In this document: piece after piece, positions 32,690 to 64,000 of the stretch | Position numbering within the stretch: the first letter of the stretch is position 1 | Layout of the letters: each line of letters opens with the position of its first letter | From: a virus | Taxonomy: Duplodnaviria > Heunggongvirae > Uroviricota > Caudoviricetes | Strand: one strand, 5' to 3' | Virus record (IMG/VR): IMGVR_UViG_3300028048_000051 | Coordinates: 111,843-175,842 of that record | DNA length: 64,000 bases | Notes under the pieces: generated by a model | The model's database searches: none | The model's input: only the letters and a program-made list of their open reading frames with translations | What the model was told of the DNA's origin: nothing | Position numbers and translations under genes: made by a program

Positions 32690-33753
32690 GGAAGTTGGCA
32701 AGCATCAGAACGATAGAGTCTCTCAGTCCTATCGAGGGCGCGGATAAGATCGAGTTGGCTCATACCGGTGGATGGCAATGTGTGGTCGGCAAGGACCAGT
32801 TCAAACCTGGTGAAGCTGCTGTGTTTTTCGAGATCGACAGTGCTTTGGCTCCAAATGATGAGCGTTATGCTTTCTTGAAGCCGACATGTCTTAAGGAATG
32901 GCGGAACAAGGACGGACAGCTCGTTGATTCCTGTATACGGATTCGTACCATGCGGTTCCGTGGTCAGATCTCGCAGGGGTTGTTTATGCCCATTCACGAT
33001 TTTCCAGAGATTGTGGATAGGACTGAGGGAATTGACCTTACTGAAGTACTGCATGTACGGCATTTCGACCTGATCAAGGAGCAGGCCGATACCATTCTCG
33101 GCAAGGTAAAGCTCGCTGGAGACATCTATGGTAGTTTCCCATCGGCATTGGTCCCGAAGACCGATGAGGAAAGACTGCAGAATCTGATGGACTATTTCGA
33201 GACCAGGAAAGATGTAGCCTTTGAATGTACTGAGAAGTTCGACGGATGCAGCGTTACCTTTGGGTACTCCACCACGTTGGAGGATCCATTCTTTGTCTGT
33301 GGCAGAAACAACCGTCTCAAGGACACGGGAGAGAATCTCTACTGGCGAATGGCGAGAAAGTACGATCTGCAGCATCTTCTGGAGCAGTGCTCCAAGATGG
33401 GAACTGACCTGGCCATCCAAGCCGAGATAGTCGGTCCCGGAGTCAACGGCAATCGGGATCAATACACCGAGCATGAGATACGGGTATTTCGTATCTACGA
33501 CATGCAGAAGCAGCAGTGGTTGACTCCTGAAGCGCGTCATGCATTTTGTGAACGCCATAAACTGCCGCATGTCAAGATCGTCCGTGATAACTGGGAGGTG
33601 TTCAAGGAGTTCACATCGTTGGATGACTTCCTGAGGTTCGTTGAGGGCAAAACCGATCGGGGGCATGAGCGGGAGGGCATGGTGTGGAAATCTCTAAATG
33701 GTCGTACCAGCTTCAAGGTCATCAACAATAATTACTTGCTGAAGGAGAAGTGA
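32686..33753 (+). CDS. ATP-dependent polynucleotide ligase of the covalent nucleotidyltransferase superfamily, RNA-ligase-like
   Basis: TEKFDGCS (motif I KxDG lacking the Arg typical of DNA ligases) and EGMVWK (motif V). Confidence 0.6.
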   Translation: MRKLASIRTIESLSPIEGADKIELAHTGGWQCVVGKDQFKPGEAAVFFEIDSALAPNDERYAFLKPTCLKEWRNKDGQLVDSCIRIRTMRFRGQISQGLFMPIHDFPEIVDRTEGIDLTEVLHVRHFDLIKEQADTILGKVKLAGDIYGSFPSALVPKTDEERLQNLMDYFETRKDVAFECTEKFDGCSVTFGYSTTLEDPFFVCGRNNRLKDTGENLYWRMARKYDLQHLLEQCSKMGTDLAIQAEIVGPGVNGNRDQYTEHEIRVFRIYDMQKQQWLTPEARHAFCERHKLPHVKIVRDNWEVFKEFTSLDDFLRFVEGKTDRGHEREGMVWKSLNGRTSFKVINNNYLLKEK

Positions 33754-38861: not shown

Positions 38862-39293
38862 ATGGGACATTTAGAGGATTTGGTGCCCCCGCTGGAGTTG
38901 TGCGAGCAGCTTCCTGCTGGGGCTTTCAGCGACAGCGCCCTGGTACATGTCGAAGTGCTGATTAAGGATGGCTTGGTCAACCTCAAAGGCATTGTTCCTC
39001 GGGCTTGCTTGAAAGCATGTTACGATGGCACGCTCGGCACCGTTTTCGGCACCGTTCTTGCCCCTGCTCCGACTCTACAGGAGATTATGGACGCGCTGTA
39101 CACGGATGCCGAAGGCACCTGTGAGTGCATCAACTGTGAGCGAGATATGCTAGGATGGAACGTGGATACAACATACGAATGTCACGATGACAGCGGTTAC
39201 GGGTCGGACGATGGAACGGAATCCGATGGATCCAATCCTGCCGCCGCTGCGTTGAGGCTGTATCTGGAAAGGTATGGGAACGATGGAGCGTAA
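38862..39293 (+). CDS. paralogue family A member (LVPxLELC...FxDSALV...PAPTLxEIM)
   Basis: Shares its N-terminal motif with 39283, 47141 and 50495. Confidence 0.5.
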   Translation: MGHLEDLVPPLELCEQLPAGAFSDSALVHVEVLIKDGLVNLKGIVPRACLKACYDGTLGTVFGTVLAPAPTLQEIMDALYTDAEGTCECINCERDMLGWNVDTTYECHDDSGYGSDDGTESDGSNPAAAALRLYLERYGNDGA

Positions 39294-39732
39294 GTACCTG
39301 GTGCCGTCGCTCGAACTGTGCAAGCGACTCCATGAGGACTCCTCGCCGCCGTACTTCTGTGATTCGCACTTCATGTGGTGCGAGGATGATAAGGGCGCGG
39401 CCGTCATCGAGCGCGACAGTTCGTGCCCGGACGGCGGCACGCACCGCATCGGCTATCCGGGGCAACTGGTCTATCCGGCGCCCACGATCGGGGAGCTGAT
39501 GCGGGCGATCATGTGCCAGGTGGGCAAGCAGAAGACCGTGGAGTTGAGAGTCATCAACGACGGCAACCCGCATTGGTTCGTGAAATGCCAGGTCAAGGAC
39601 AGCCTGCTCGACTACCTCGAGAATACTGAGCACGGCCCGGCGCGTCCCGAGGATCAGCTGGCGCAGACATGGCTGATGCTTCGCGAGGCTAAGCGACGGA
39701 GGCGTGTAAGAAAGGAGAAACAAAATGGATGA
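39283..39732 (+). CDS. paralogue family A member
   Basis: MERKYLVPSLELCKRLHE...YPAPTIGELMRAI. Internal ATG of ORF 39274. Confidence 0.5.
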   Translation: MERKYLVPSLELCKRLHEDSSPPYFCDSHFMWCEDDKGAAVIERDSSCPDGGTHRIGYPGQLVYPAPTIGELMRAIMCQVGKQKTVELRVINDGNPHWFVKCQVKDSLLDYLENTEHGPARPEDQLAQTWLMLREAKRRRRVRKEKQNG

Positions 39733-46617: not shown

Positions 46618-47148
46618 ATGAATAACTTAACGACGAGGGAGTTTTGCAGGGATTTCGGGGCGTGCCCCGAGGGCACACGCTTCGCGCTCAAGTTCGAAAC
46701 AATGAAGGATTGTTACGCCGCTTTGCTTCGCGGCGAAGCGGGAGAGAAGTCCGCAGGATGGGCGGTTTGGACGATCACGCGCGAAGGAGTGATAAGTGAC
46801 CGCAACTTGCGACTGTTCGCCGTGCGTTGTGCGAGGAGAGTGCAACATCTGATGACGGATGAGCGCATCATCAAGGCGCTCGACGCGGCGGAGCGGTATG
46901 CCAACGGCGAAGCGACGGACGATGAGCTTGCTGCCGCCCGTGCCGCCGCCTATGCTGCCCATGCCGCCGCCTATGCTGTCGCCTGTGCCGCCCATGCCAC
47001 CGCGAGCGCCGCCGCCTATGCTGCCGCCCGTGCCGCCTGTGTCGTCCATGCCCCCGCCTATTACGCCGCCCGTGCCGCCGAGCGTCGAGCGCAGTTGGAG
47101 ATTCTCGCCGAGTTCGGCAACCCGTTCGAGGAGACGAAAGATGAATAA
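46618..47148 (+). CDS. hypothetical protein with Ala-rich tandem-repeat region
   Basis: AAARAAAYAAHAAAYAVACAAHATASAAAYAAARAA... encoded by degenerate 21/24-nt repeats. Confidence 0.5.
   Translation: MNNLTTREFCRDFGACPEGTRFALKFETMKDCYAALLRGEAGEKSAGWAVWTITREGVISDRNLRLFAVRCARRVQHLMTDERIIKALDAAERYANGEATDDELAAARAAAYAAHAAAYAVACAAHATASAAAYAAARAACVVHAPAYYAARAAERRAQLEILAEFGNPFEETKDE
46930..47085. repeat. degenerate tandem repeat (about 21-24 nt units, GCCGCCCGTGCCGCCGCCTATGCT-like) inside a coding region
   Basis: Visible periodic repetition of gccgcc(c/t)(g/a)tgccgccgcctatgct units. Confidence 0.5.
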
Positions 47149-47485
47149 TCTCGAACAACTTGTGCCGCCGCCGAAAATGTGCCGGGAAATACCGGAAGGC
47201 GCGTTCGCGGACAGCGCGCTGGTGTGGACGCAGGGCATAGACGGTATGTTCATTGATTTCCGCGACGCGCTCCCAGAGGATGAAGAGGGCGATTTGCCCG
47301 CGCCAACGCTAGTCGAGATCCTTAAGGAGGGCGGCGCCCGTATGGAGTTCGAGATCGCTAACCTGCTGCTCATGGGCGGCGAGCATGCCGACACCATAAC
47401 CGATTCGGCTCTGGAGGCGTGGCTGGACATTCAAAAGGAGAAGCAGGAGCAGCCAGATGACGCAGGAAGAGACCCGTTTGATTGA
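47141..47485 (+). CDS. paralogue family A member
   Basis: MNNLEQLVPPPKMCREIPEGAFADSALVW...LPAPTLVEILKE. Confidence 0.5.
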   Translation: MNNLEQLVPPPKMCREIPEGAFADSALVWTQGIDGMFIDFRDALPEDEEGDLPAPTLVEILKEGGARMEFEIANLLLMGGEHADTITDSALEAWLDIQKEKQEQPDDAGRDPFD

Positions 47486-50494: not shown

Positions 50495-50839
50495 ATGGAA
50501 GAGCAACTCAAGAATATCGTTCCTGACCTGAAGTTGTGCAAACATATCCCGGAGGGCGAGTTTGCCGACAGTGCCCTGGTGTGGGAACGGAACATCGGGC
50601 TGGACAGAACGGAGTATGAACCGGTCGTGAACACGCGCAAGGCCGCGCTCGACCACAACATCATCTGCCCTGCCCCCACTTTGGAGGAGGTGCTGAAGAA
50701 ACTTCCGCTCGCCATGTGCCGCCAGTATTTCGATGACGGCGATTGGTGCGTAGGATTGAATCACGTGGTCGTATGCGAGCCCTGCGCCGCTTCGGCGGCA
50801 CTGCAGCTGTGGCTGGCGCGACAGAAACCGAAACCCTGA
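50495..50839 (+). CDS. paralogue family A member
   Basis: MEEQLKNIVPDLKLCKHIPEGEFADSALVW...CPAPTLEEVLKK. Confidence 0.5.
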   Translation: MEEQLKNIVPDLKLCKHIPEGEFADSALVWERNIGLDRTEYEPVVNTRKAALDHNIICPAPTLEEVLKKLPLAMCRQYFDDGDWCVGLNHVVVCEPCAASAALQLWLARQKPKP

Positions 50840-52906: not shown

Positions 52907-53329
52907 ATGTCTAAACGACTTTTTTGTTTTGCCGTGGAGTATACGGAGTCGCTGTCCATTTTCAACATCACGGTCAACATGGACGAGGAGGTCGATCGCA
53001 TGTCGTCGGGGACCTACCTGGCAAAAGACGGTCTGACGAAAGAAGCCTGGAGGATACTGGACTCGCCTTTGCAGGTATTGGCAATGGATCATCCGGCAGA
53101 TCACCATACGGTATATCCGCGGTTTCGAGACGAACTGCTGCATTGTCGTGGCGGGGCCTTTGCCTATAACTCTGATGATGATCCTGAGTTGGTTGAAAAG
53201 GCCAAACGTCATATTCTTCACGCGGTTACCGATCCTGTTTCGGAAGTCTGTGCAAACCTCTACAGACGTGTGTTGGCGATATCCGATAAGATATTGGTTA
53301 CCAACGACCAAATCTGTCAGCATCACTAA
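52907..53329 (+). CDS. paralogue family C distant member
   Basis: KRLFCFAVEY...GGAFAYNSDDDPELVEKAKRHI. Confidence 0.5.
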   Translation: MSKRLFCFAVEYTESLSIFNITVNMDEEVDRMSSGTYLAKDGLTKEAWRILDSPLQVLAMDHPADHHTVYPRFRDELLHCRGGAFAYNSDDDPELVEKAKRHILHAVTDPVSEVCANLYRRVLAISDKILVTNDQICQHH

Positions 53330-53342
53330 GGGAGCTACGTCA

Positions 53343-53801
53343 ATGAGTAAGTACGTGTTTTACTTTAGGTGTTCATTTACCCAAGATCCTGAGGATTTGC
53401 GCATCGACGTGGTGGACGATCTTGTTAGAGAGTCTACTGGCAACGGTATTGTCACAAAGGGCGGCAGGTATGTGATTACCAGTCATGGAGGAGTATATCC
53501 TACGTTGAAGGCAATGAAAAATGCCATCAAGCAAGGATATAGGCACGGCAGTGACATCCACGTATGTGATGATGCCGGCACGTTGATGAGGCATCACTGG
53601 TTTGGCTTCTGCTATGACTCAGAAGATGATTCGGAAGATGTCGCTGTTACAAGAGCACGTGTGGCCGATATCTGTACCGCGGCATACCTTGACATGCTGA
53701 AACACCAACGCGAGGTCATTGATGATATGACGGTCAAAGTGAAGGATGCTGTAGCTATGGTAAGAAGGGGAGAGATTCCAAGGAGTGTTATCAATGAATA
53801 G
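53343..53801 (+). CDS. paralogue family C distant member
   Basis: KYVFYFRCSF...FGFCYDSEDDSEDVAVTRARV. Confidence 0.45.
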   Translation: MSKYVFYFRCSFTQDPEDLRIDVVDDLVRESTGNGIVTKGGRYVITSHGGVYPTLKAMKNAIKQGYRHGSDIHVCDDAGTLMRHHWFGFCYDSEDDSEDVAVTRARVADICTAAYLDMLKHQREVIDDMTVKVKDAVAMVRRGEIPRSVINE

Positions 53802-54300
53802 ACCTACCATTTATGCCATCGACTTCGATGGTACCATCGTGAGGGATGCCTGGCCAGGTATTGGTGATCCTATTCCAGAGGTATGTAATCTCATCCTGAA
53901 CATCCAGAAACGCGGGGACAAATGGATCTTGTACACCATGCGCGAAGGAGAGTTGCTGGATAAGGCTCTGAAGGAGTGCGAAAGGATAGGTCTGAAGCCG
54001 GATGCGGTCAACGACAACATCAAATCCATGCAGGAGTTGTTTGGCAATAATCCGCGGAAGATATATGCCGATGTATATATCGACGACCACAACGCCGGTG
54101 GGCTGCGACTGGACAACCAAGAATCGTCGAAAAGTACAACACCTTTTTGCGATGATTGTCGGTATCGGCTTCCCATATGGCCGAATGACATTTGCGTTTA
54201 CGGTAATATGAGTCGTTCCTGCAAAATTCTTCGAGACACAAAAGATCTTTGTGGTCCGGAGGGTAAATGGTTTGATCCTAACAAGGTGGTACCTGTGTAG
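53794..54300 (+). CDS. HAD-superfamily phosphatase-like protein
   Basis: IYAIDFDGTIV is HAD motif I (DxDGT). Confidence 0.5.
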   Translation: MNRPTIYAIDFDGTIVRDAWPGIGDPIPEVCNLILNIQKRGDKWILYTMREGELLDKALKECERIGLKPDAVNDNIKSMQELFGNNPRKIYADVYIDDHNAGGLRLDNQESSKSTTPFCDDCRYRLPIWPNDICVYGNMSRSCKILRDTKDLCGPEGKWFDPNKVVPV

Positions 54301-54591
54301 ATGAAATCTTCGGTAGACATGTTGTGGGAGCGTATTTTCGCAGAGCCCGACATTGGGACAGACCAGTGGAGACAGCGCACTCGACAATGGTTGATGGACT
54401 TCGGAGCAAGTCATCGTGATTGGGTTTACTGTCGCAGACTGAAGCGAAGGGACAAACGTAAGAACACAAGGTTCTGGCGTACCAAGCAGGTCTGTGCAAC
54501 ATGGAAATCACATCCGCGCATAGTATCCACTCCGCATTCACCTGGGATGTCTGTATACGCTATGGCGTTTGGCGTCAATACAGAGCAGTAG
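54301..54591 (+). CDS. hypothetical small basic protein
   Basis: ORF. Confidence 0.4.
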   Translation: MKSSVDMLWERIFAEPDIGTDQWRQRTRQWLMDFGASHRDWVYCRRLKRRDKRKNTRFWRTKQVCATWKSHPRIVSTPHSPGMSVYAMAFGVNTEQ

Positions 54592-54611
54592 GTTTTAAGA
54601 AAGGAAAAGAT

Positions 54612-54899
54612 ATGAGTTGTCGGTTCTGCAAACACTGTAAACCGGCGCCGGAGGGCGCGGATTACTGCGATATGGACGTAGAACATATCATTACGCCGGA
54701 GGGTGTGAAGACCGAGAATTATCCGCGCAGTTGGTGTGGAGCGTCCTTGGAGTATTTCAGATCCAAGAACAACGGTCGGTGTCCGCACTTTTCCAAATCA
54801 TGGTACTGTAGTGGTAATTGCGGATGTTGCGGCGCCCTTCTGTGTGGAATACCGGCAGTGTTACTGCTTTTGTTTGTGTTGTTCGTATTATGTAGGTAA
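54612..54899 (+). CDS. hypothetical Cys-rich protein with C-terminal transmembrane segment
   Basis: Internal ATG of ORF 54501, preceded by AAGGAAAAG. Confidence 0.4.
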   Translation: MSCRFCKHCKPAPEGADYCDMDVEHIITPEGVKTENYPRSWCGASLEYFRSKNNGRCPHFSKSWYCSGNCGCCGALLCGIPAVLLLLFVLFVLCR

Positions 54900-54903
54900 G
54901 ATC

Positions 54904-55326
54904 ATGTCTGCATCGTTGGCAAAAGCCTTTGGGCTTTTCAGTGGATTGCTTCAGTACAGGTACTACCACGCCATTCACATGGCATTGGAACATTACGACG
55001 ATCCGGATGCGGTGGTGGCATTGTTTCATGATCTGGTGGAGGATGGTGATGTAACTTGGCAGCAGATAGAGGATGCCGAGGTACTGAGTGACGAGCAACT
55101 GGAGGCCCTTAAAATTCTTACGCATGACAAGATCATGACTTATCGCGATTACATCTTATCCTGTGTGGGTAATCCCATAGCGCGAAAGGTGAAATTGTGG
55201 GATGTCGAGCATCACTTGAACACCAAGGACTCACTGGCTAACTGGTTGGAGCCTAAATACCATAAAGCGAGAAGAGTGTTGATTGGAACCAAAACCGAAC
55301 ACCAAGGCTACGGAAAGGAGGTATGA
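54904..55326 (+). CDS. Rel/SpoT-type HD-domain hydrolase (small alarmone hydrolase-like)
   Basis: HMALEHYDDPDAVVALFHDLVEDGDVT resembles SpoT H...aALLHDviEDT. KVKLWDVEHHLNT resembles IKLADRLHNMRT. Confidence 0.65.
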   Translation: MSASLAKAFGLFSGLLQYRYYHAIHMALEHYDDPDAVVALFHDLVEDGDVTWQQIEDAEVLSDEQLEALKILTHDKIMTYRDYILSCVGNPIARKVKLWDVEHHLNTKDSLANWLEPKYHKARRVLIGTKTEHQGYGKEV

Positions 55327-55565
55327 TGCTACGTATACTGTTGGTGTTGGGACTCACGTTTGCGCTGTGGTGGACTGTCTACAGGTTTCTGCTGAGACGG
55401 TTCATACGCGTACGCAGTGAGTTGGAAGACGAAGACGAACCCTGCGAGGGTCGTCTTTATGAACTGAAGGAAAAGCGAAACAAACTCAAAGCCGACTGTG
55501 CGGAGGCGCAGAAGGCAGCCGCCCGTAAGATCAAAGAGGCGGAGAAGATCAAAAAAGCACTATGA
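55323..55565 (+). CDS. small membrane protein with charged coiled-coil tail
   Basis: MMLRILLVLGLTFALWWTVYRFLL... Confidence 0.45.
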   Translation: MMLRILLVLGLTFALWWTVYRFLLRRFIRVRSELEDEDEPCEGRLYELKEKRNKLKADCAEAQKAAARKIKEAEKIKKAL

Positions 55566-56764
55566 GCAAAAAGAAAAAGGAGGATAACAGAATGAATCAG
55601 AAAGGTATTGTGGCTATCATAGCCGTGGTCGTGGCGCTCGTGTTGGCGCTCATCATCAGCAATGTGTTTCTGCACAGCAACAACGTGCAGAACTTCCAGG
55701 TCATCCAATCCATTACCGGTGACATCGAGGTTCGTCATGACGGTGGATACTACTTCCGGGTGCTGCCCAAGATTTGGACGTACCCGAAGGTCAACACCGT
55801 GTTTTTCTCCAACGAGACGCAGGAGAGCAAAGAACGCGACGGCGTGCAGGTCCGCTTCTCCAACAAGGGCGAAGGCGATGTCTCCTGCCAGGTGGTGTAT
55901 CGTCTGTACACCGAGCAGGAATCCATCAAGCGGATGCACAACTATGCCGGCGGCAATATCGATGTGGTCGACAACCTGGTGTTGTCGAAGCTTAAGGATA
56001 TCGCCATGACCTGTGCCGCCAATATCACTTCCAGTCAGGCCATCGAGAACCGCGAGGAGTTTGCCAGCAACATCCGAAAGCTGTTTGTGAACAATCCGGA
56101 ACTCAAGGCTACCGGTATCGTTGTCGAACAGTTCTCGATCACGAAGATCAATTTCGACAAGATCACCACCGACCTGTTCCAGGCGCAACAGAAGGCAGAC
56201 CTGCAGAAGAAGACCGCGGAGGCCGAAAAGCAGAATCTGCTCATGCAGAAGGAGCGCACTGTTGCCCAATATGAACAGCAGGTTGCCGAGTCCAAGGGTA
56301 AGGCCGAGGTCGAGAAGATCAAGGCAGTGACCGACGCTCAGCGGCAGAAGGAACTTGCCGAGATCAAGGCTCAACAGGAAGTTGCTGTTGCCGAGCTCGC
56401 CAAGAAGCAGGCTACGGTTGAGGCCCAGAAGAAGCTGGAAGTTGCTGAAATTCAGAAAAAGGAAGAGGCTGCCAAGCTCGAAGTCATCCGTATTCAGGCC
56501 GAACAGAAGGTGGCCGCGGCAAAGGCACGTGAGCAGGAGATCAAGCTGTCCGGCGCCATGACCGAGCAGGAGAAGGTGCGGCTGGAGATCGAGAAGGAAA
56601 CCCGCATCGGAGTGGCCAAGGCGTGGGCCGACGGCATATCCCGTATGACCCTGCCGAGTACGGTCATGCTGGGTTCCGGAGCCAACGGATCTCCGGTCGG
56701 CGATTTGATCAATTTGATGACGGTCGAGAAGGCCAAAGCACTTGCCGCGAAGCCGAGCAAGTAA
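55562..56764 (+). CDS. SPFH/band-7 (flotillin/YqiK-like) membrane protein with long coiled coil
   Basis: N-terminal transmembrane segment, a beta-rich SPFH-like core, then Ala/Glu/Lys/Gln heptad repeats. Confidence 0.55.
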   Translation: MSKKKKEDNRMNQKGIVAIIAVVVALVLALIISNVFLHSNNVQNFQVIQSITGDIEVRHDGGYYFRVLPKIWTYPKVNTVFFSNETQESKERDGVQVRFSNKGEGDVSCQVVYRLYTEQESIKRMHNYAGGNIDVVDNLVLSKLKDIAMTCAANITSSQAIENREEFASNIRKLFVNNPELKATGIVVEQFSITKINFDKITTDLFQAQQKADLQKKTAEAEKQNLLMQKERTVAQYEQQVAESKGKAEVEKIKAVTDAQRQKELAEIKAQQEVAVAELAKKQATVEAQKKLEVAEIQKKEEAAKLEVIRIQAEQKVAAAKAREQEIKLSGAMTEQEKVRLEIEKETRIGVAKAWADGISRMTLPSTVMLGSGANGSPVGDLINLMTVEKAKALAAKPSK

Positions 56765-56813
56765 GACATTCATCGAACAATGGCCCTATAGAAAAACAGG
56801 CCAATATTTCTGC

Positions 56814-56846
56814 AAACACCGGGGTAACTCCCGGTGTTTGTTTTTA
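56814..56846 (+). terminator. rho-independent terminator
   Basis: AAACACCGGG / CCCGGTGTTT 10-bp stem then GTTTTT. Confidence 0.55.
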
Positions 56847-56923
56847 TGCCCACAGTGGGCAGAACAAATCGGGCTTTCAGTCCGTGCCGCCGGAAGCGGT
56901 AATAATCATAACGAGAGTATGAA

Positions 56924-57172
56924 GTGGGTAACAACAGAAAAAGTATCTTCCATTTGTGGAAGTCCATAGGTGCCACGAGAAAATTGCGCAAGATGGGCGC
57001 AGGACGTGGTGTGTATTGTCTGTACTATGAAATAGACGGTAAGCCGCTATACTGCATCCGCTGTACCAGACGTGATTCAAGGATAGTGGCTTATACGGAT
57101 CTGGAAGGAGCGTACTCGCTATGGAAATATTGTCCCTGCGCACCAAGGGTTGTGTCACGCTGGGGATGTTGA
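56924..57172 (+). CDS. hypothetical small Cys-rich protein
   Basis: 82-aa ORF followed directly by a strong terminator; weak ribosome-binding site. Confidence 0.3.
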   Translation: MGNNRKSIFHLWKSIGATRKLRKMGAGRGVYCLYYEIDGKPLYCIRCTRRDSRIVAYTDLEGAYSLWKYCPCAPRVVSRWGC

Positions 57173-57182
57173 AAATTTGACA

Positions 57183-57217
57183 GTCCTTCCGATGGATACG
57201 GGAGGACTTTTTTTTTT
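57183..57217 (+). terminator. rho-independent terminator (T10 tract)
   Basis: GTCCTTCCG / CGGGAGGAC stem with one G·U pair, then TTTTTTTTTT. Confidence 0.6.
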
Positions 57218-57350
57218 ACTCTTCGTCAGTCAGGCCGAGAAGGATCTCCATCGCCAGCACCACAGCAGGGTCTACGCATTCACATGGAGTGTACTCTTCG
57301 TCTTCGTCCGCCTTCAGGAATTCAGTTAGTTCCAGGACATCCCCGAACAT
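57216..57350 (-). CDS. small acidic protein (44 aa) immediately downstream of the sigma factor gene; candidate sigma-associated or anti-sigma factor
   Basis: MFGDVLELTEFLKADEDEEYTPCECVDPAVVLAMEILLGLTDEE. Same frame as the sigma gene and one codon after its stop (TGA ACG ATG), with AAGGGG ribosome-binding site. Confidence 0.35.
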   Translation of the reverse strand: MFGDVLELTEFLKADEDEEYTPCECVDPAVVLAMEILLGLTDEE

Positions 57351-57353
57351 CGT

Positions 57354-58211
57354 TCACACCCCTTCATGTCTGCCGGTGATTCCATCTGCCAACAGGCGTT
57401 TCTTCAGTGTTGCCAGTTCCTGCTGAAGGAATGCCTCGGTGTTTCTTATGGACATGCCGATCTCTTGGGCCACTACCTTAATAGGCCATGTCTTTTTGCC
57501 CATACCGAAAAACAACTCCACAGCCAATTTACCGCGGTCAGACAGTTGATCTATGTGTTTCTGCAGAGTTTTAACGAGCATTTCGTTATATGCAGCATCC
57601 TGAGGATCCTCGCATTCTGCACACAGCACGTCTCCAAACGTAAGTTCTTCATCCTCTTTGATTTTCTCATCTAACGAGCACGCGTGTACAGCAGCGTATT
57701 TGAGTGTCTTTACTGTGCCGAGTCCGATGTTGGACAGTGCGGCGAGTTCTTCATCGTCCGGCAGTCTGTCGAATTCACGTACAAAGGCCGCTTTTGCCTG
57801 TTCTATCTTGTGCAGTTGTCCTGTGGTTTGCGTAGACAGTTTCACTGCGTGCGCTTGTGCAGATATCGCCAAACGCATGGTCTGTTTGATCCAGTATGAA
57901 GCATAGGCTCCGAACTTAGGGCACTTGGAGGGATCGAAGCGTTGTGCTGCGATGATGAGTCCTAGATTACCTTCGGATACGAGATCCTGAAATCCAAGTC
58001 CGCAGTATTTCAGGTCGTGGGCTATCTTCACAACTAATCGCAGATTACCGGTGACAAGTTCGTTGATTGCGTTGGTGCGCTCTTCAGGAGTACCATGTTG
58101 GATGATCTCTGCGAGTTCCGTTTCGCGGGAACGGACGATGCGCGGGAACTGATTGATGCTGCGTACGTACCTGTTTACTGATTCGATCGGCGCCGCTGCT
58201 GTCTGTGTCAT
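57354..58211 (-). CDS. sigma-70 family RNA polymerase sigma factor
   Basis: Regions 2 (ELVTGNLRLVVKIAHDL...YASYWIKQ), 3 and 4 (helix-turn-helix near the C-terminus). AGGAGGAAGTACC ribosome-binding site before the ATG. Confidence 0.85.
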   Translation of the reverse strand: MTQTAAAPIESVNRYVRSINQFPRIVRSRETELAEIIQHGTPEERTNAINELVTGNLRLVVKIAHDLKYCGLGFQDLVSEGNLGLIIAAQRFDPSKCPKFGAYASYWIKQTMRLAISAQAHAVKLSTQTTGQLHKIEQAKAAFVREFDRLPDDEELAALSNIGLGTVKTLKYAAVHACSLDEKIKEDEELTFGDVLCAECEDPQDAAYNEMLVKTLQKHIDQLSDRGKLAVELFFGMGKKTWPIKVVAQEIGMSIRNTEAFLQQELATLKKRLLADGITGRHEGV

Positions 58212-58345
58212 GGTACTTCCTCCTACTGTATGGCTATGACGCTGATAAAGTATACTACTTAAAGTTGATAATTTCAAGTCGAAAACGACTTAATTTCAAA
58301 GGTTTTTTCGGCATAATATAATGGAACGAAAGTTCCAAAAGTAAA

Positions 58346-58365
58346 TTTTGTACTTAAGTACAAAA
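58346..58365. promoter_or_regulatory. perfect 20-bp palindrome TTTTGTACTTAAGTACAAAA (candidate operator) in a divergent promoter region
   Basis: Seen directly; lies 5 nt upstream of the AAGTATAACCCA motif, between the sigma gene and 58401. Confidence 0.45.
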
Positions 58366-58369
58366 TCAA

Positions 58370-58381
58370 AAGTATAACCCA
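58370..58381 (+). promoter_or_regulatory. conserved promoter-like motif AAGTATAACCCA (copy 1 of 4), 8 nt upstream of AGGAGGGTA
   Basis: Repeated at 59223, 60523 and 61856 at fixed distance from ribosome-binding site and ATG. Confidence 0.5.
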
Positions 58382-58400
58382 AACACAGGAGGGTACAAAA

Positions 58401-58769
58401 ATGAGTATGACCGCTACGTTGTTTCTGAAACTCGAAAAGGAGTTTTGCTCCGAAACATATTTTGACTTTCATGGCGTTCCGGCGCTTAAGCGCAAAATCG
58501 CCAGTCTTCGCAAGTTCATTCAGTCGTGCAGGTCATGGCTGGACAAAGAAACCTCGGATGATCTCAAACTAAAGCTCAAGGCTGCTGAAGCCGAGCTCGA
58601 CCGACGTCTGAATCCCGACATACCTTGTCGGGACTGCCGTCAATATCGTGTTGTCTGGAATTACCTGGACAATTGTCCGGAAGAGGTTCGGAACTGCCGT
58701 CGTGCATGGCAGAGTCATCCCTTCAAATGTCCGCGGAGAGTACACGGCGAAAAGAAGGAGGGCAGATGA
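58401..58769 (+). CDS. hypothetical protein
   Basis: ORF downstream of the motif and ribosome-binding site. Confidence 0.5.
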   Translation: MSMTATLFLKLEKEFCSETYFDFHGVPALKRKIASLRKFIQSCRSWLDKETSDDLKLKLKAAEAELDRRLNPDIPCRDCRQYRVVWNYLDNCPEEVRNCRRAWQSHPFKCPRRVHGEKKEGR

Positions 58770-59080
58770 TGGACTGGAGTGCTCTTTTTCAAAAACCAGC
58801 GCGGGAGCGCAAAGCACTCCGCGAACTGGATCTTGCGGATAAACTGGTCAGTTGGGGGACGGATCATATCTGGATCGCCAACGCCAAGTACCCGGTCACG
58901 TACATCAACGTGGCCAGGGACGTTGTTGACGGCGAATCGGTTATGCAGGCCGGAGATATCCGGTTCGCATACCGTAATAATGACAACCAGTGGTTGGATG
59001 GTATTGCCAGTCGCTACAAAACCGATGCGTGCATCGGTCATCCTGCCGCATGGCGGTGGGAGATAAAATTTTTCCACTGA
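58766..59080 (+). CDS. hypothetical protein
   Basis: Internal ATGATG of ORF 58625, preceded by AAGGAGGG. Confidence 0.5.
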   Translation: MMDWSALFQKPARERKALRELDLADKLVSWGTDHIWIANAKYPVTYINVARDVVDGESVMQAGDIRFAYRNNDNQWLDGIASRYKTDACIGHPAAWRWEIKFFH

Positions 59081-59222
59081 ACAAAAAAAAAAACAGGCTT
59101 GGGCAGTGCCGTTAAACTGCCCACCGTCCAGGCGGGTCGTTCCCGTCTGCCGATGAGCCAACGATCCGCAAAACAGCGGTAAAGGCGAAACGGTAACGTC
59201 GTTACGGTCATTGTTCAGCCGT

Positions 59223-59234
59223 AACGATTCACAA
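59223..59234 (+). promoter_or_regulatory. AAGTATAACCCA motif copy 2
   Basis: acaAGTATAACCCAaacataAGGAGGGTAcatcATG. Confidence 0.5.
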
Positions 59235-59263
59235 GTATAACCCAAACATAAGGAGGGTACATC

Positions 59264-60283
59264 ATGAACGTCAACACCAACACCATTAACAACAACGTCA
59301 TCAGCTGCCGTGATCTCGAGCTTCCGTTCAACGAGGCTCTGCTCACAGCCAACGAGAAGCTCTTCATCGAGAAGGGCTGGGACGGCGAGGCCTGCCTCAA
59401 GACCGCGCTGCGTTTCGAAGATGTGGTTGCCGTCCACGACGGCGAGTTCCACAGCGATGAGGTTCTGAGCCTCGCGCTGTTGGTAGTATTCGCGGGGCTG
59501 GACCCCGAACAGCGGATGCGGACCCGCGATCCGAAGAAGCTCATGGACGCCGACCTCCGGGTCGACGTGGGCGAAGGCCTCCTCGACCATCACGGCGCTC
59601 GTGCCACCACCGGAGTAGCGGCCTGCAGCCGGGTGTTCGCGTTGTTGAGAAACACCGGAGTTTTCCGTAAACTAGCGCTGTCGACCAGGGCGGTAGACGC
59701 CCTGGTCGACCTGGTCGATCGGGTAGCCGCGGTCGACACCGGCGATCCCAATGCCGAGGGGCACTGGATCATCGACATGGTCCAGACTTTTAATCGGGCC
59801 ACTACAGTAATAACTGGAGAAGATTTCTTCGACCGCGCCGTAGCGGCGGTCGTCGACGCTCTTCAATGCATCATCGGCATTGCCGATGCCGAGGCGATCG
59901 CAACCAATGCGGCGCTTGATGCGATCGTGGCCGCTGACGGGGATGCCGTCGTGGCATTCCCGGCGGAAGCCCGGGCGGCGAAGTGCAAGGAGCTGTTGTG
60001 GAAACACGCGAAGGACTGCGTGTACTACGTCAGCCCCGAGAGTCCTGACGATTGGCGCATTCTTTGCGCCGCGGCTCCGGAAGTCAGCCCCGCGGACGGA
60101 AAGGCATTCGCTTTCTCCAGCCGTCGACTGATCCCGGAGAGATTCCGAGGACTTCGCGGAGAACAACTCTCGGAGGTCACCGGCATCGACGGAGGCATCT
60201 TCAGCCACGCGGCAGGTTTTATCGCGGGTTTCAAGACTCGCGAGGCGGCAATCCATTTCGCGGTGCTTTGTCTCCGCGACTGA
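59264..60283 (+). CDS. MYG1/UPF0160-like metal-dependent hydrolase family protein (high-GC gene)
   Basis: VAVHDGEFHSDEVLSLALL resembles the MYG1 signature THNGTFHCDEALACALL. GC content is clearly above the surrounding genome. Confidence 0.4.
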   Translation: MNVNTNTINNNVISCRDLELPFNEALLTANEKLFIEKGWDGEACLKTALRFEDVVAVHDGEFHSDEVLSLALLVVFAGLDPEQRMRTRDPKKLMDADLRVDVGEGLLDHHGARATTGVAACSRVFALLRNTGVFRKLALSTRAVDALVDLVDRVAAVDTGDPNAEGHWIIDMVQTFNRATTVITGEDFFDRAVAAVVDALQCIIGIADAEAIATNAALDAIVAADGDAVVAFPAEARAAKCKELLWKHAKDCVYYVSPESPDDWRILCAAAPEVSPADGKAFAFSSRRLIPERFRGLRGEQLSEVTGIDGGIFSHAAGFIAGFKTREAAIHFAVLCLRD

Positions 60284-60295
60284 TTTAATGATCGG

Positions 60296-60375
60296 GGGGC
60301 CGGAAGAGGTTCGACGGGGCGCAAAGCCAAAGCGCAAAGCTCCGGACAGGGATTCGATTCCCCTCGGCTCCACCA
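60296..60375 (+). ncRNA. tmRNA tRNA-like-domain mimic (5' and 3' tmRNA termini fused, about 80 nt, genomically encoded CCA, G3·U70 acceptor pair)
   Basis: GGGGCCGGAAGAGGUUCGACGGGG... resembles the tmRNA 5' end GGGGCUGAUUCUGGAUUCGACGGG. ...GGACAGGGAUUCGAUUCCCCUCGGCUCCACCA resembles the tmRNA 3' end GGACGCGGGUUCAACUCCCGCCAGCUCCACCA. No mRNA-like domain. Confidence 0.45.
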
Positions 60376-60388
60376 ATTCTTTCATGGG

Positions 60389-60461
60389 GGCGCGGTAGCT
60401 CAAAGGTAGAGCTCTCGACGCTTAATCGAGCGGGTGAAGGTTCGAGTCCTTCCTGCGCCCC
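60389..60461 (+). tRNA. tRNA (anticodon-loop positions give CUU = Lys, but with unusual G at position 33)
   Basis: Acceptor GGCGCGG/CUGCGCC; U8A9; D-stem GCUC/GAGC; anticodon stem CUCGA/UCGAG with loop CGCUUAA; T-arm GAAGG-UUCGAGU-CCUUC. Confidence 0.65.
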
Positions 60462-60522
60462 CGTCATTTTATAAATCAATATGGACGTCATCCACGGTGG
60501 GTGGCGTCCTTTTTATTTCCCA

Positions 60523-60533
60523 AAGTATAACCA
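60523..60533 (+). promoter_or_regulatory. AAGTATAACC(A) motif copy 3
   Basis: cccaAAGTATAACCAAGGAGaataaaaATG. Confidence 0.45.
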
Positions 60534-60545
60534 AGGAGAATAAAA

Positions 60546-61088
60546 ATGAAGAAGGTTTTTTCAATGTTTTTGGCGCTCATTTGCGCCGTTACCGTCTTTG
60601 CCGGATTCCCGGCCAACATATACATCGCGGATCCACAGGACGTCGCGTCCGTGGTGTCCAAACTGCAGAAGCAGCAGAACGCCGAAACAGTGTACGTCGA
60701 AACCTTTATGCAGGGTTTCCGCGCTGGCTTCACAATAGCCAGTGACAAGGAGTTGGGAACTCTCGAACTGCGGTACGTTCGTAAGAAGGTAGAGGAGTTC
60801 GTGGCTACTAAGCTGGTTCCGGTCCTGAAGCGGGATGGCTTTTATGAAGACTGGCGAAAGGCCCAGTTTGATCCGGAGCAGATCTTCATGGTCGAGGACG
60901 TTGTACAGATGTATCTCGATCATGAGGCTTACTCCCCTAAGGAGCTGATGGCTAAAATAGAAAAGCATGTGGCCATCATGAGGAAGAAGCATCCTGTCAT
61001 AAAGATGATGGAAAACGATCCCAAATACGTGGGTATGATCGTTATCCTGAACAGAGATATCGTCGCCCACTTCAAACAGGACAAGTGA
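60546..61088 (+). CDS. secreted protein with signal peptide
   Basis: MKKVFSMFLALICAVTVFAGFPA... Confidence 0.5.
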   Translation: MKKVFSMFLALICAVTVFAGFPANIYIADPQDVASVVSKLQKQQNAETVYVETFMQGFRAGFTIASDKELGTLELRYVRKKVEEFVATKLVPVLKRDGFYEDWRKAQFDPEQIFMVEDVVQMYLDHEAYSPKELMAKIEKHVAIMRKKHPVIKMMENDPKYVGMIVILNRDIVAHFKQDK

Positions 61089-61214
61089 TCATGGCCAAGG
61101 TCAAAATGGTACTTTGTTTCGCGGTCGGAGATTTCTTCGACTTCGCCGGTTGCGGTATTTGTGCGGCTCGTTGGTACCTGCGCGGTGCCAATTGCATCAA
61201 GGGAGGTGACTACA

Positions 61215-61658
61215 ATGAGTAACCATCTCACTTTTGATGAAGCAGTCAACGACGGCAGTTTCATTCTCAGGTTCCTGATGCAAGGCCTGGAGACCGGTAA
61301 GAGCATTACTCCGGAGCAGGCCATCCGCAACGGTGAGAAGATATTCGCCAAGATCAGGGCGAAGGGCATCACCGGAGCAGATGTCACCTTGCTACGTGCC
61401 TACAAGGCCATAGTGCAGGCCGAGTACATCATCAGGTCTTGTCCGGAAGACGCTCCGTTGCCGGCGCGTATTCTTGGCACTCTCGCCAAGGAAACGCAAC
61501 AGGCGATCATCCGCACTTGGACCTTCAAGGGTCCTGGTAACGACGACCGGTGTCGCGACGCCAGGTTCCGGGCATTGAAAGAGATAGAGTTCAGGTTGAG
61601 GGTCATTCAGCAGATCTTCAACAAACTGGGCTACGATATGGGGGATACGGAACAATGA
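61215..61658 (+). CDS. hypothetical protein
   Basis: Internal ATG of ORF 61161, preceded by GGGAGGTGAC. Confidence 0.5.
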   Translation: MSNHLTFDEAVNDGSFILRFLMQGLETGKSITPEQAIRNGEKIFAKIRAKGITGADVTLLRAYKAIVQAEYIIRSCPEDAPLPARILGTLAKETQQAIIRTWTFKGPGNDDRCRDARFRALKEIEFRLRVIQQIFNKLGYDMGDTEQ

Positions 61659-61780
61659 ATAATCTCCCTGCTTGGACTCAGGCACTCTTGCTGATTACCG
61701 GTATTACGCTGATAGTTATCGGCGTAGCCGGTGCGTTTGACAAGGCCGAGAAGGATTACGAAGATCCTGATCGGTGGTAA
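61655..61780 (+). CDS. small membrane peptide (41 aa)
   Basis: MNNLPAWTQALLLITGITLIVIGVAGAF... Confidence 0.3.
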   Translation: MNNLPAWTQALLLITGITLIVIGVAGAFDKAEKDYEDPDRW

Positions 61781-61855
61781 TGTAAAGTATCTCGGAAGCA
61801 TGGCGCCCTATCCCCATTGGGGCGATCTCCTCCGTGCTTCCGAGATTTTTCTTTT

Positions 61856-61867
61856 AAGTATAACCCA
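61856..61867 (+). promoter_or_regulatory. AAGTATAACCCA motif copy 4
   Basis: ttttAAGTATAACCCAGGAGGGTAaacacaaATG. Confidence 0.5.
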
Positions 61868-61882
61868 GGAGGGTAAACACAA

Positions 61883-62248
61883 ATGAGTGAAGTCAAAAAA
61901 GAGCAACCCACGTTGATCGAAGGCCGTTGGTATTGGGTGAAGAAACATCACGCGGTACCGGAATGCGCCTTGTATGGAACCAAGGACGGCATCAGAGGGT
62001 TCCATCTGATATATGAAGACGACAAGGTCTACCAGTTGGAAGACTTCGAGCTCTTCATCGGAGAGGCAATCAACCCGGCGTTGAAGAAAATATACAACAT
62101 CCTGAAGAAGGATATTAAAGCCAAGTTGGCCGATGTGGAGCTGCGCATGCTATATAACCACGTTTGTCGCAACACTTGCGTGGTGGAAGGCTGTCCGGAA
62201 TCCCAGATGAGGGAGTGTTTCCTCGTCAGAATGAAGAAAAATTTGTAA
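61883..62248 (+). CDS. hypothetical protein
   Basis: ORF downstream of the motif and ribosome-binding site. Confidence 0.5.
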   Translation: MSEVKKEQPTLIEGRWYWVKKHHAVPECALYGTKDGIRGFHLIYEDDKVYQLEDFELFIGEAINPALKKIYNILKKDIKAKLADVELRMLYNHVCRNTCVVEGCPESQMRECFLVRMKKNL

Positions 62249-62354
62249 CAGATGTCGTTACTTATTGTCGGGAGCCATCGTTCCGGCTCCCTCCAATAAG
62301 TACAACATCGTAAAATGCCTGCTTACGCAAGGCTAGACAAAGGAGAATCATGAG

Positions 62355-62573
62355 ATGAAAAATATAATCAAAAAAATCAATGACTGTGTGGAAAATATAA
62401 AGAAAAGCCTACTGCCGCGGTGTATCCACAAGTGGACTCTTTACAGAGGCCATTATTATGTGGACAACGACGGAAATCGTCATGTGGTGGTGCGTTGCAA
62501 CAAGTGCGGCGCCATGATGACGTCGTTCGGAGTACTGCGTCCGGAAGAGCTCATCAGCGTGAAGGAGGCGTAG
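62355..62573 (+). CDS. hypothetical small Zn-ribbon-like protein
   Basis: ORF with AAAGGAGAATC ribosome-binding site. Confidence 0.5.
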   Translation: MKNIIKKINDCVENIKKSLLPRCIHKWTLYRGHYYVDNDGNRHVVVRCNKCGAMMTSFGVLRPEELISVKEA

Positions 62574-62575
62574 TA

Positions 62576-62611
62576 TGGGATTCAAAACATTTACTTGCGT
62601 CATCTGCGGCT
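62576..62611 (+). repeat. direct repeat copy 1: truncated duplicate of the 5' end of gene 63126 (encodes MGFKTFTCVICG then stop)
   Basis: ATGGGATTCAAAACATTTACTTGCGTCATCTGCGGC versus ATGGGATTCAAGACTTTCACCTGTGTCATCTGCGGC at 63126. Confidence 0.5.
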
Positions 62612-62652
62612 AATCTCTCCTAAAAGGAGGATTAAAAAAAAGGAGTAACGAC

Positions 62653-63105
62653 ATGGATTTCAAGCGCATCATGAAGTACATCATTCCGGTTGAGAAGCAG
62701 ATTCCCACCGGTGATGTCGATGAGCAGAGTCTGTTTTATCAAAAGGTCGAAGGCCGGTGGGAGTTGGTTTACGACTATTATCGCGACAGTGCCGGTCATG
62801 AGTATGAGAATCAGAGAATCGGTAATCTTCCGCGAATCGAAGATAATCTTCCGCACAACGGAATTCGTACGATCAATCCGACTGTTGATTATAACGGTAA
62901 CATGGCGATCGTGATCGAGGGAACGATCTCCTATGACGGCGATAACATCATGAATGACAACTTCCGTCTGCGCACGGAGATCAAGGAGCAGATGATGTTC
63001 GAAGTTCAGCGGATTTTCGACGAGGCTCGTAGCCGCATTCGTGAGCAGAAGAAACGTCTTGACGATCTGCTTGCCAAATATGAGCATCTTCCGATCAAGG
63101 GCTAA
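62653..63105 (+). CDS. hypothetical protein (cassette between direct repeats)
   Basis: ORF with AAAAAAGGAGTAACGAC ribosome-binding site. Confidence 0.5.
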   Translation: MDFKRIMKYIIPVEKQIPTGDVDEQSLFYQKVEGRWELVYDYYRDSAGHEYENQRIGNLPRIEDNLPHNGIRTINPTVDYNGNMAIVIEGTISYDGDNIMNDNFRLRTEIKEQMMFEVQRIFDEARSRIREQKKRLDDLLAKYEHLPIKG

Positions 63106-63125
63106 CAAACAATGAGGAGATCAAA

Positions 63126-63161
63126 ATGGGATTCAAGACTTTCACCTGTGTCATCTGCGGC
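63126..63161 (+). repeat. direct repeat copy 2 (intact 5' end of gene 63126..63926)
   Basis: See copy 1. Confidence 0.5.
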
Positions 63162-63926
63162 AAGGAAGGACTGACGAAGCGCAGCAGCTATGCGGTAGGC
63201 GTTGGTCGTGCCTGCAGGGAACACCAGGAGGCGCAGGATGCCAATAACAAACGGCAGGAGGCCTGTCGGAAGGCACAGGAAAAGCGAGATGACATCGTTG
63301 CCGAATTACGGAAGATGAATCGTCGTAATTTCCTGCCCTGTGATATAGAGCAGTATGATTTCAGATGTCTGGAATATCTGGAGTCGGCCGCGTCGGACAA
63401 CACGACTAACGGCTTCATGACTGAAATACTTCCGTTGTTGAGACAACTCGCGAAATCTCCATATGCATTCTACCCGCGACACTACACCCAGATGGCCCTG
63501 GATGACATAGAAAAAATGCTTGACGAGGACAACTGCCAGATGCACTTTGTAAAGGCGGTCGTGAAGAACGCCAAAGATGCATTGCGTCGGGACAGTCTGA
63601 GACAGTTGAACAGCAATCTTGTCGCCCAGGTGGAGAAGTGCTTGTTGGATTGGTGTCGTGCCACTGTCGCAGTACTGAAGGCGCCTGTGGAGAAACGTAC
63701 TCCGATAATGCTTGAAGCAGTATTGAAGACGTTGAGGCAGGTCAGGGAAACCGAAAAGCAGTTTTCTCAGCTGGACTATCGGTTGTGGGCCTTCACCGAT
63801 GACACTTCGGTATATCCGGCTCACGTGGAGAAACTGCATTGTTTGCGCTATGCGATTGTATCCATGGGCGGAAGGCAGGAGAAACTTCCGGAATTACTTC
63901 GCATGGTGATGACGTTGCGGAAGTGA
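63126..63926 (+). CDS. hypothetical protein with N-terminal CxxC...C..H cluster
   Basis: ORF. Confidence 0.55.
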   Translation: MGFKTFTCVICGKEGLTKRSSYAVGVGRACREHQEAQDANNKRQEACRKAQEKRDDIVAELRKMNRRNFLPCDIEQYDFRCLEYLESAASDNTTNGFMTEILPLLRQLAKSPYAFYPRHYTQMALDDIEKMLDEDNCQMHFVKAVVKNAKDALRRDSLRQLNSNLVAQVEKCLLDWCRATVAVLKAPVEKRTPIMLEAVLKTLRQVRETEKQFSQLDYRLWAFTDDTSVYPAHVEKLHCLRYAIVSMGGRQEKLPELLRMVMTLRK

Positions 63927-63942
63927 AGGAAACCACACGTGG

Positions 63943-63974
63943 AGACGGCTTGGATGCCGTCTTTTTTTTTTTTT
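63943..63974 (+). terminator. rho-independent terminator (T13 tract)
   Basis: AGACGGC / GCCGTCT stem, TTGGAT loop, then 13 T. Confidence 0.65.
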
Positions 63975-64000
63975 ACCCTATAGGTGGAAATATTAAAAGG

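Follow-up and report, generated by a model that had tools for sequence, protein, structure and literature searches.

An Aph1-like HD hydrolase with an altered base pocket in a large uncultivated phage: a candidate (p)ppApp counter-toxin enzyme

We report that a 64,000-nucleotide stretch of viral DNA (hereafter the window; positions 111,843 to 175,842 of IMG/VR record IMGVR_UViG_3300028048_000051, Caudoviricetes) carries a gene for a stand-alone HD hydrolase of 140 amino acids (aa) that has the fold and catalytic residues of RelA/SpoT-type (RSH) hydrolases and is closest in sequence and structure to Aph1, the adenosine 3'-pyrophosphohydrolase 1 of Bacteroides caccae (PDB 7SMG; Ahmad et al., PNAS 2023, PMC10083569). 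The gene lies in a phage context, is under purifying selection and has no adjacent synthetase. The hydrolase is a highly divergent new member of a known enzyme type, and phage enzymes of such kind are already known; the points of interest are a base pocket that appears to have been rebuilt and, possibly, a phage-specific sub-family. Regarding substrate and biological role, we infer that it is most likely a stand-alone, metal-dependent 3'-pyrophosphohydrolase of the Aph1 branch that acts on (p)ppApp as a counter-toxin enzyme, a reading to which we assign a probability of roughly 0.5.

Specifically, H22, H42, D43 and D100 would hold an Mn2+ or Mg2+ ion and E46/D47 would activate a water molecule, with cleavage of the 3'-pyrophosphate converting (p)ppApp to ADP/ATP and pyrophosphate. 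The enzyme would in this way detoxify alarmone-type products of RSH toxins of the host or of competitors, i.e. MuF-Apk2, toxSAS abortive-infection systems and the type VI secretion system toxins Apk1/Tas1, so that ATP and translation stay available to the replicating phage. Aph1 and all 12 purified homologues hydrolyse ppApp, Aph1 at about 478 per min, and modest ppGpp activity was seen in only two of the 12 (PMC10083569); moreover, Aph1 proteins cross-protect against different Apk2 toxins (PMC12226406).

Fold, catalytic residues and kinship

The structure of the monomer was predicted using AlphaFold2 (AF2) and an alignment of 66 sequences (predicted local distance difference test score 91, predicted template modelling score 0.85). 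The model consists of eight helices (residues 3-15, 18-29, 36-46, 52-58, 63-72, 80-88, 91-106 and 116-127) and a disordered tail (128-140), and so has the compact eight-helix protomer without helix 0 and helix 9 that is expected of an Aph; eight helices rather than nine or more set Aph1 apart from other RSH hydrolases (PMC10083569). In the structure comparison Aph1 (7smg_A) scored 15.7, with a root mean square deviation of 1.9 Å over 122 residues and 28% identity, followed by PaSAH (11.8), MESH1 (11.4), TdActApo2 (11.0), RelH (10.8), SpoT (10.5), the L. levettii small alarmone hydrolase (SAH; 10.4) and Rel (8.5). Other HD families (YpgQ, deoxynucleoside triphosphatases, YfbR and phosphodiesterases) scored 8.2 or below. 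Foldseek, run on an earlier and shallower model, ranked the structures in the same way, and the same fold was found in many phage proteins in BFVD.

To identify functional residues, Aph1 residues 4-145 were recovered from the HMMER alignment and aligned with the query and 74 homologues using MAFFT. As judged from these alignments the catalytic set of the hydrolase is complete (Table 1). In the 66-sequence alignment H42, D43 and E46 are invariant, as are K97 (Aph1 K107) and D100, while no less than 90% of the sequences have D47; Y80, N90 and T73 are conserved too. Changing the HD pair to alanine abolishes Aph1 function (PMC10083569). The fold, the H...HD...D metal ligands and the HDxxED pair together place the protein among the RSH hydrolases. 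An earlier, sequence-only reading had proposed a Rel/SpoT-type HD hydrolase on the basis of two strings, both of which are found in the 140-aa open reading frame (ORF): ALFHDLVEDG (residues 39-48) and KVKLWDVEHHL (residues 95-105). That proposal is supported by fold, catalytic residues and homologue profile and can be refined to the Aph1 branch; the structure prediction it called for gave Aph1 as the closest relative ahead of the other RSH hydrolases, and the four His/Asp metal ligands, whose absence would have spoken against it, are present and aligned.

The sequence searches point in the same direction. PHROG 990 ('metal-dependent phosphohydrolase') matches the protein with an E-value of 1.1e-17. 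The single significant phmmer match among all PDB sequences was 7smg, '(p)ppApp hydrolase' (E 2.7e-7, query residues 20-107); the second, a Rel chain, was not significant (E 0.83). An exhaustive hidden Markov model (HMM) search of 1.84 billion representatives returned 5413 homologues at E<=1e-3, mostly stand-alone proteins of 140-150 aa, and a profile built from the nearest 66 of the stand-alone homologues matched Aph1 across its full length with E 4.3e-45, compared with 1e-19 to 1e-7 for Rel/SpoT/MESH1/SAH chains. The nearest kinship to Aph1 in both sequence and structure includes the family-defining C-terminal region (Y90-E143). Close relatives are few: a word-indexed protein search gave only two, and the clade amounts to three sequences in a search of 5.8 billion proteins. 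No relative was found in an IMG/VR scan using the clade alignment. The best non-clade matches, P0003 (395 aa) and P0004 (319 aa), each have two tandem Aph-like HD domains (matched stretches 27-113 and 203-289 in P0004), a form that fits the 374-position PHROG 990 profile; the parts of the Aph literature available to us do not mention duplicated Aph-like hydrolases.

The longest ORF in frame starts at GTG 54736 and encodes 196 aa. This start was rejected because it overlaps with the upstream ORF, two public-data orthologues begin at the ATG and the Shine-Dalgarno-like AGGT preceding that ATG (within TAGGTAAGATCATG) is retained in a relative, the 149-kb contig L001. Compared with this contig the hydrolase gene shows 94% DNA identity, with 13 synonymous and 12 non-synonymous differences (dN/dS ≈0.22), and we therefore conclude that it is a real gene under purifying selection.

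The base pocket and competing substrates

Several observations weigh against a (p)ppApp hydrolase of the Aph1 branch. A Pfam scan of the protein gave no HD_4 (PF13328) match even at E<=10, only DUF7625 at E 0.16, and the NCBIfam model spoT_relA matched 29 residues with E 0.056 and 11.7 bits (cut-off 499), i.e. the curated thresholds were not reached. The HMM support that the sequence-only reading had proposed to seek was not obtained with the protein itself but with its family: HD_4, the RelA/SpoT-type HD model, is matched by 52 of the 66 nearest homologues, and the link to HD_4 is a transitive one by way of the family profile. Moreover, of the six-residue Aph signature (D24, R96, D116, R119, K133 and Y134) only the last two are kept, as K118 and Y119, and F12, S86, N106 and D109 take the place of the other four. 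According to mutagenesis D24 and R119 exclude ppGpp (PMC10083569), and these two residues, whose mutation shifts the specificity of Aph1, are both replaced here. The AHxGQxDKxGxPY loop with D24/K25 is also gone, and the alpha1-alpha2 connection is shorter by approximately 9 residues. Finally, neither a RelA_SpoT synthetase nor toxSAS or MuF was detected in 104 window ORFs and the 10 kb beyond the window end, and therefore no genomic partner fixes the substrate.

In the 74-homologue alignment the signature residue is the commonest at each position, with K and R tied at the K133 position. The query reads A-F-G-L-F-S-G-L-L-Q-Y-R-Y-Y-H where the N-terminal loop motif H-x-G-Q-x-[RD]-K-x-G-x-P-Y-x-x-H is expected, with only Y and H kept, and in the AF2 model two residues alone join helix 3-15 to helix 18-29. 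K97 and D100 of the K-x-x-D-x-x-x-N motif are present and its ribose-contacting Asn (Aph1 N114) is replaced by H104, a position occupied by Asn in 59 and by His in 14 of the 74 homologues. All three clade members have F12, H104 and [KR]118-Y119, and position 109 is acidic in each. Since F12/S13 stand for D24/K25, K108-D109 for T118-R119 and H104 for N114, the base-binding pocket appears rebuilt and its specificity may be relaxed or shifted. Since two of six signature residues are kept, we use the name 'Aph1-like' for the protein and do not class it as a bona fide Aph.

Features of this kind recur in other sequences. A C-terminal motif, D-x-x-[DH]-H-L-x-x-K-[DE]-[ST]-L-(short linker)-L-x-x-[RK]-Y-x-x-A, is present in about 10 of 77 stand-alone sequences (the query, P0001, P0002, P0018, P0058, P0105, P0112, P0117, P0129, P0136 and P0143). 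This sub-family has His for N114 and lacks R119, with a conserved Lys one residue earlier (K108 in the query); its alpha7-alpha8 linker is shorter by 5-7 residues, and the DK loop is absent from most members, being retained in P0058 and P0117. All members on long enough contigs are in phage-like surroundings without an adjacent RSH synthetase: P0018 and P0058 are found among small ORFs (unidirectional around P0018), P0143 adjoins Pam3_Gp34, Prim-Pol/VapE and a DNA methyltransferase, and P0117 is on a 192-kb contig that also encodes ParB, a helicase and SLT. Given the small sample we treat the phage association as a lead and not as a result. It is conceivable, though we hold it to be doubtful, that these proteins constitute a phage-restricted sub-family with the Aph1 fold, in which the pocket has been rebuilt for a substrate other than free (p)ppApp, foremost the 3'-pyrophosphorylated CCA end of tRNA or else a 3'-phosphorylated signalling nucleotide. 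If true, this would represent a dedicated anti-defence enzyme class against toxSAS of the CapRel, PhRel2 and FaRel2 types.

For the window hydrolase itself, an unlikely alternative is that it removes the 3'-pyrophosphate put on the tRNA CCA end by CapRel, PhRel2 and FaRel2, instead of or besides acting on free (p)ppApp, which would make it an anti-defence enzyme of the phage with a polymer as its substrate. The tRNA modification is an adenosine 3'-pyrophosphate and chemically like ppApp. The phage SAHs PbcSpo of PVP-SE1 and PaSpo of SSU5 neutralise every toxSAS tested, including tRNA-targeting ones (PMC7229694; CapRel, PhRel, PhRel2 and FaRel2 are in its Table 1), and PaSpo-SSU5 removes the tRNA modification (bioRxiv 10.1101/2024.07.05.602228). 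Deletion of the base-contacting loop (D24/K25 in Aph1, R43/R44/S45 in TtRel) could admit a 5'-extended substrate, and the phage, which has an RNA ligase and a tRNA-Lys gene in addition to RtcB, invests in tRNA maintenance. Against this, the acidic isoelectric point of the protein (5.65) offers no hint of an RNA-binding surface, tblastn with the hydrolase gives no link to the Salmonella phage SAHs, and activity of the Aph1 branch on tRNA-pp is not reported in those parts of the Aph and toxSAS literature that were available. The isoelectric point as such resembles that of Aph1 and is uninformative, and net charge was consequently dropped as a hint of RNA binding.

The classical SAH function, hydrolysis of (p)ppGpp, alone or along with (p)ppApp, to blunt the host stringent response, also strikes us as improbable. 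The fold and catalytic motifs are common to Rel/SpoT/MESH1/SAH. Furthermore, D24 and R119, which bar ppGpp from Aph1, are both absent, the Aph1 D24R/R119A variant gains ppGpp hydrolysis, and two natural Aph homologues have the modest ppGpp activity mentioned above (PMC10083569). One may speculate that the acidic residue in place of R119 forms hydrogen bonds with guanine N1/N2. Weighed against these points is the ppApp activity of the 12 purified Aph homologues.

A further alternative is self-immunity, the role in which Aph1 was discovered (PMC10083569): protection against a (p)ppApp-synthesising toxin of the phage itself, as in the MuF-Apk2/IapK/Aph1 module. The 36% identical homologue in S. 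pneumoniae prophage IPP34 follows genes for the portal, an SPP1-gp7/MuF protein and a 69-aa ORF, a gene order that agrees with PMC12226406, and with an integrase present the element may be temperate like the Aph1-carrying prophages. However, the scans of the 104 window ORFs and the 10 kb downstream, which leave ≈85-110 kb of the element outside, gave no RelA_SpoT synthetase or MuF; the gene is situated among small early/accessory ORFs away from portal and head genes, and the sub-family members of other phages have no adjacent synthetase either. We consider this role very unlikely. The same holds for an HD-fold protein that acts on another substrate (e.g. NADPH, 3'-phosphoadenosine 5'-phosphosulfate [PAPS] or an unknown signalling nucleotide) or is a catalytically weak binding protein: four of the six specificity residues differ, as does the substrate loop, MESH1, which ranks third in the structure comparison, acts on NADPH with a mutant structure binding PAPS (PDB titles), and the clade is rare, but all catalytic and metal residues are kept across clade and family, the gene is under purifying selection, and the close structural neighbours are all alarmone-type 3'-pyrophosphohydrolases.

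Genomic setting

Nearly all of the roughly 110 window ORFs are on the plus strand, and the hydrolase gene lies in an accessory/replication region. Predicted functions include nucleotide metabolism (NrdD and its radical-SAM activase, ThyX, dUTPase, a dCTP-deaminase-like protein and thioredoxin), DNA functions (DNA polymerase A, RusA, a GIY-YIG endonuclease, a reverse transcriptase and a DUF3310 protein) and RNA-related functions (RtcB, an RNA ligase, a MYG1-like exonuclease and one tRNA-Lys(CTT)), together with a JAB and ThiF pair, an SPFH protein and a sigma-70-like factor.

Table 1. Coordinates of the hydrolase gene, its functional codons and the features downstream, in window positions
Feature	Position	Strand	Remarks
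Shine-Dalgarno-like AGGT	54894..54897	+	Putative; 6 nt 5' of the ATG, read from the sequence
Gene for 140-aa stand-alone RelA/SpoT-type (Aph1-like) HD pyrophosphohydrolase	54904..55326	+	End includes the stop codon
F12-S13-G14-L15-L16-Q17 codons	54937..54954	+	In place of the Aph1 D24-K25-A26-G-S-A loop; MAFFT, 74 homologues
H22 codon	54967..54969	+	First metal-ligand His (Aph1 H33); nearly invariant in the 66-sequence alignment
H42-D43-L-V-E46-D47 codons	55027..55044	+	HD metal dyad and ED catalytic pair (Aph1 H53-D54 / E57-D58)
K97-L-W-D100-V-E-H103-H104 codons	55192..55215	+	Include the last metal ligand, D100 (Aph1 D110)
N106-T-K108-D109 codons	55219..55230	+	Stand for D116-I-T-R119 of Aph1, which belong in part to the base-specificity signature; Aph1 alignment
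K118-Y119 codons	55255..55260	+	Aph1 K133-Y134; 118 is K/R in 64/74 and 119 is Y in 70/74 homologues
Gene for 80-aa protein with N-terminal hydrophobic helix	55323..55565	+	Start overlaps the hydrolase stop (ATGA); AAGGAGGT upstream; context only
Gene for 400-aa SPFH/Band-7 membrane protein	55562..56764	+	Last gene of the co-directional block; Pfam Band_7 E 5.8e-13; PHROG 11908/200
Intrinsic-terminator-like hairpin (13-bp stem and T run)	56812..56841	+	Closes the block; context only

Upstream of the hydrolase gene is an ORF for a Cys-rich membrane protein and downstream are the 80-aa membrane protein, the SPFH protein and the terminator. The 80-aa gene adjoins the hydrolase gene in contigs L001, L002 and L017 and not in L003, a more distant relative whose hydrolase is 64% identical and whose copy of the gene has different neighbours. 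An operon link between the hydrolase, 80-aa and SPFH genes was set aside as the order is kept only in the close relatives, and because the neighbourhood is absent from L003 the latter two are not counted as partners. The 80-aa protein, whose gene precedes that of the SPFH protein (55323-56764 for the two), is a membrane or coiled-coil protein, and SPFH homologues are found in crAss-like phages and in those of Vibrio and Aeromonas. An 818-bp segment a short way upstream of the hydrolase gene (53782-54599) is absent from the colinear L001, indicating a recent indel or moron; it encodes a 171-aa HAD-like protein (PHROG 24386 / PHROG 1238, E 1e-25 / 2e-22) and a 96-aa ORF.

L001 (ERZ27257204 k141_1514792, 149,163 bp) is colinear with the window at 82-95% nucleotide identity. 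The 175,834-bp contig L017, ERZ27252073 k141_1341108, is 99.97% identical over window positions 53128-64000, and its hydrolase protein is identical. Just past the window end (L017 10876 corresponds to window 64000), L017 10979-13298 and 19525-20801 encode an integrase, an excisionase-like helix-turn-helix protein and a tail-fibre-collar-like protein; the tyrosine integrase matches PHROG 1 (E 5.7e-51) and Pfam (E 1.9e-20). A purely lytic jumbo phage is thus unsupported, and from the integrase and the excisionase-like gene the element is a large (150-176 kb) phage or prophage, possibly temperate. When 50,697 phage genomes were searched with 10 kb by megablast and with a 485-aa ORF by tblastn no match was obtained, and hence the phage has no cultured relative among these sequenced phages.

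Other features of the window were noted in passing. The only clear minus-strand gene (57354-58277) encodes a sigma-70-like factor (regions 2 and 3; PHROG 351, E 1.3e-34) and is flanked by two terminator-like hairpins and a promoter-like site (58295-58322); its match to a MzaA sigma-like region is the exception in a PADLOC scan that gave no match for the hydrolase or its neighbours. RtcB (26227-27387, E 1.5e-104), an RNA ligase of the Rnl type that has a PHA02142 OB domain (32686-33753), the MYG1-family exonuclease-like protein (59264-60283) and tRNA-Lys(CTT) (60389-60462) look like a tRNA repair/replacement toolkit as used against anticodon-nuclease defences. Two slightly overlapping plus-strand genes encode a Prok-JAB deubiquitinase-like protein (11680-12747, E 3e-6) and a ThiF/E1-like protein (12711-13640, E 3.2e-8), a pair that recalls bacterial ubiquitin-like conjugation or Cap2/Cap3 of CBASS (cyclic-oligonucleotide-based antiphage signalling) and could be an anti-defence or modification module. 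A 318-aa plus-strand ORF (9543-10499; PHROG 2825 'polymerase', E 1.7e-36) with an RYADD motif is the likely source of the Pfam RVT_1 match in the whole-window scan (E 7.6e-20) and could mean a diversity-generating retroelement, a retron-like element or a group II intron. The plus-strand gene at 203-1081 (292 aa, GIY-YIG nuclease domain, E 8.5e-8) probably encodes a homing endonuclease. Finally, four paralogous plus-strand ORFs (38862-39293, 39274-39732, 46859-47485 and 50495-50839) all match one 123-aa L003 protein (27-49% identity), suggesting a small protein family that has expanded within the phage.

Known relatives and implications

Among the traits by which the Aph family is described are a homotetramer held together by the N- and C-terminal helices and hydrolysis of (p)ppApp without that of (p)ppGpp (PMC10083569). 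Compared with Aph1 the window hydrolase is without the alpha1-alpha2 loop (AHSGQIDKAGSAY) and has an alpha7-alpha8 linker that is 5 residues shorter, and its gene does not adjoin an Apk2 toxin or Tis1/IapK immunity gene. With the prophage Aph1 proteins of S. pneumoniae, Pasteurella and Mannheimia (apk2-iapK-aph1; PMC12226406) it shares an HD_4-type fold, small size and a phage-borne gene, and these are its best tblastn matches among sequenced phages (36-37% identity over residues 22-104). Matches were obtained in 168 sequenced phages, of which 131 are Pseudomonas phages and 31 are S. pneumoniae prophages, and in the latter the matching gene is the published aph1 adjoining MuF-apk2. Unlike the window hydrolase, the prophage proteins keep the full DK / N-x-D-x-x-R / K-Y signature and their genes directly follow those for the portal, MuF-toxin and IapK; in the window the immediate neighbours are the Cys-rich membrane, 80-aa and SPFH genes.

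The stand-alone phage SAHs, PaSpo of SSU5 and PbcSpo of PVP-SE1 (Jimmy et al. 2020, PMC7229694) and those of Pakpunavirus (e.g. Adele gp032, PMC12846349), represent the same concept, a phage-borne single-domain RSH-type HD hydrolase without a cognate synthetase, but belong to different SAH sub-families, and the Salmonella phage enzymes were not found by tblastn with the hydrolase. A phage genome paper annotates such a gene and describes its specificity as unpredictable (PMC12846349). Canonical SAHs comprise about 170-200 aa and at least nine helices (PMC10083569). Relative to the canonical SAH and long-RSH domains compared here, PaSAH (6YVC/6Z3N), human MESH1 (5VXA), C. glutamicum RelH (7QOC), SpoT (7QPR) and Rel (1VJ7, 6S2T), the window hydrolase lacks the R-K-S-G-x-P-Y guanine/phosphate loop and the extra N- and C-terminal helices, has His for the Asn of the D-x-x-x-N motif, and shows no significant direct sequence similarity.

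Alarmone-type nucleotides made by RSH toxins, (p)ppApp as well as pyrophosphorylated tRNA, serve bacterial warfare and abortive-infection defence, and phage hydrolases of such products can in principle disarm the toxin systems. If the window hydrolase simply cleaves ppApp it would be one more case of a known phage counter-measure. With the gene described here a large uncultivated phage contributes a strongly diverged Aph1-like enzyme that Pfam does not detect, and it points to a sub-family, seen to date in phage-like contigs only, that differs in all residues found by experiment to set ppApp versus ppGpp specificity. This bears on how far the published Aph 'signature' predicts substrate, and on whether enzymes with the Aph fold, like the canonical phage SAHs, counter tRNA-targeting toxSAS.
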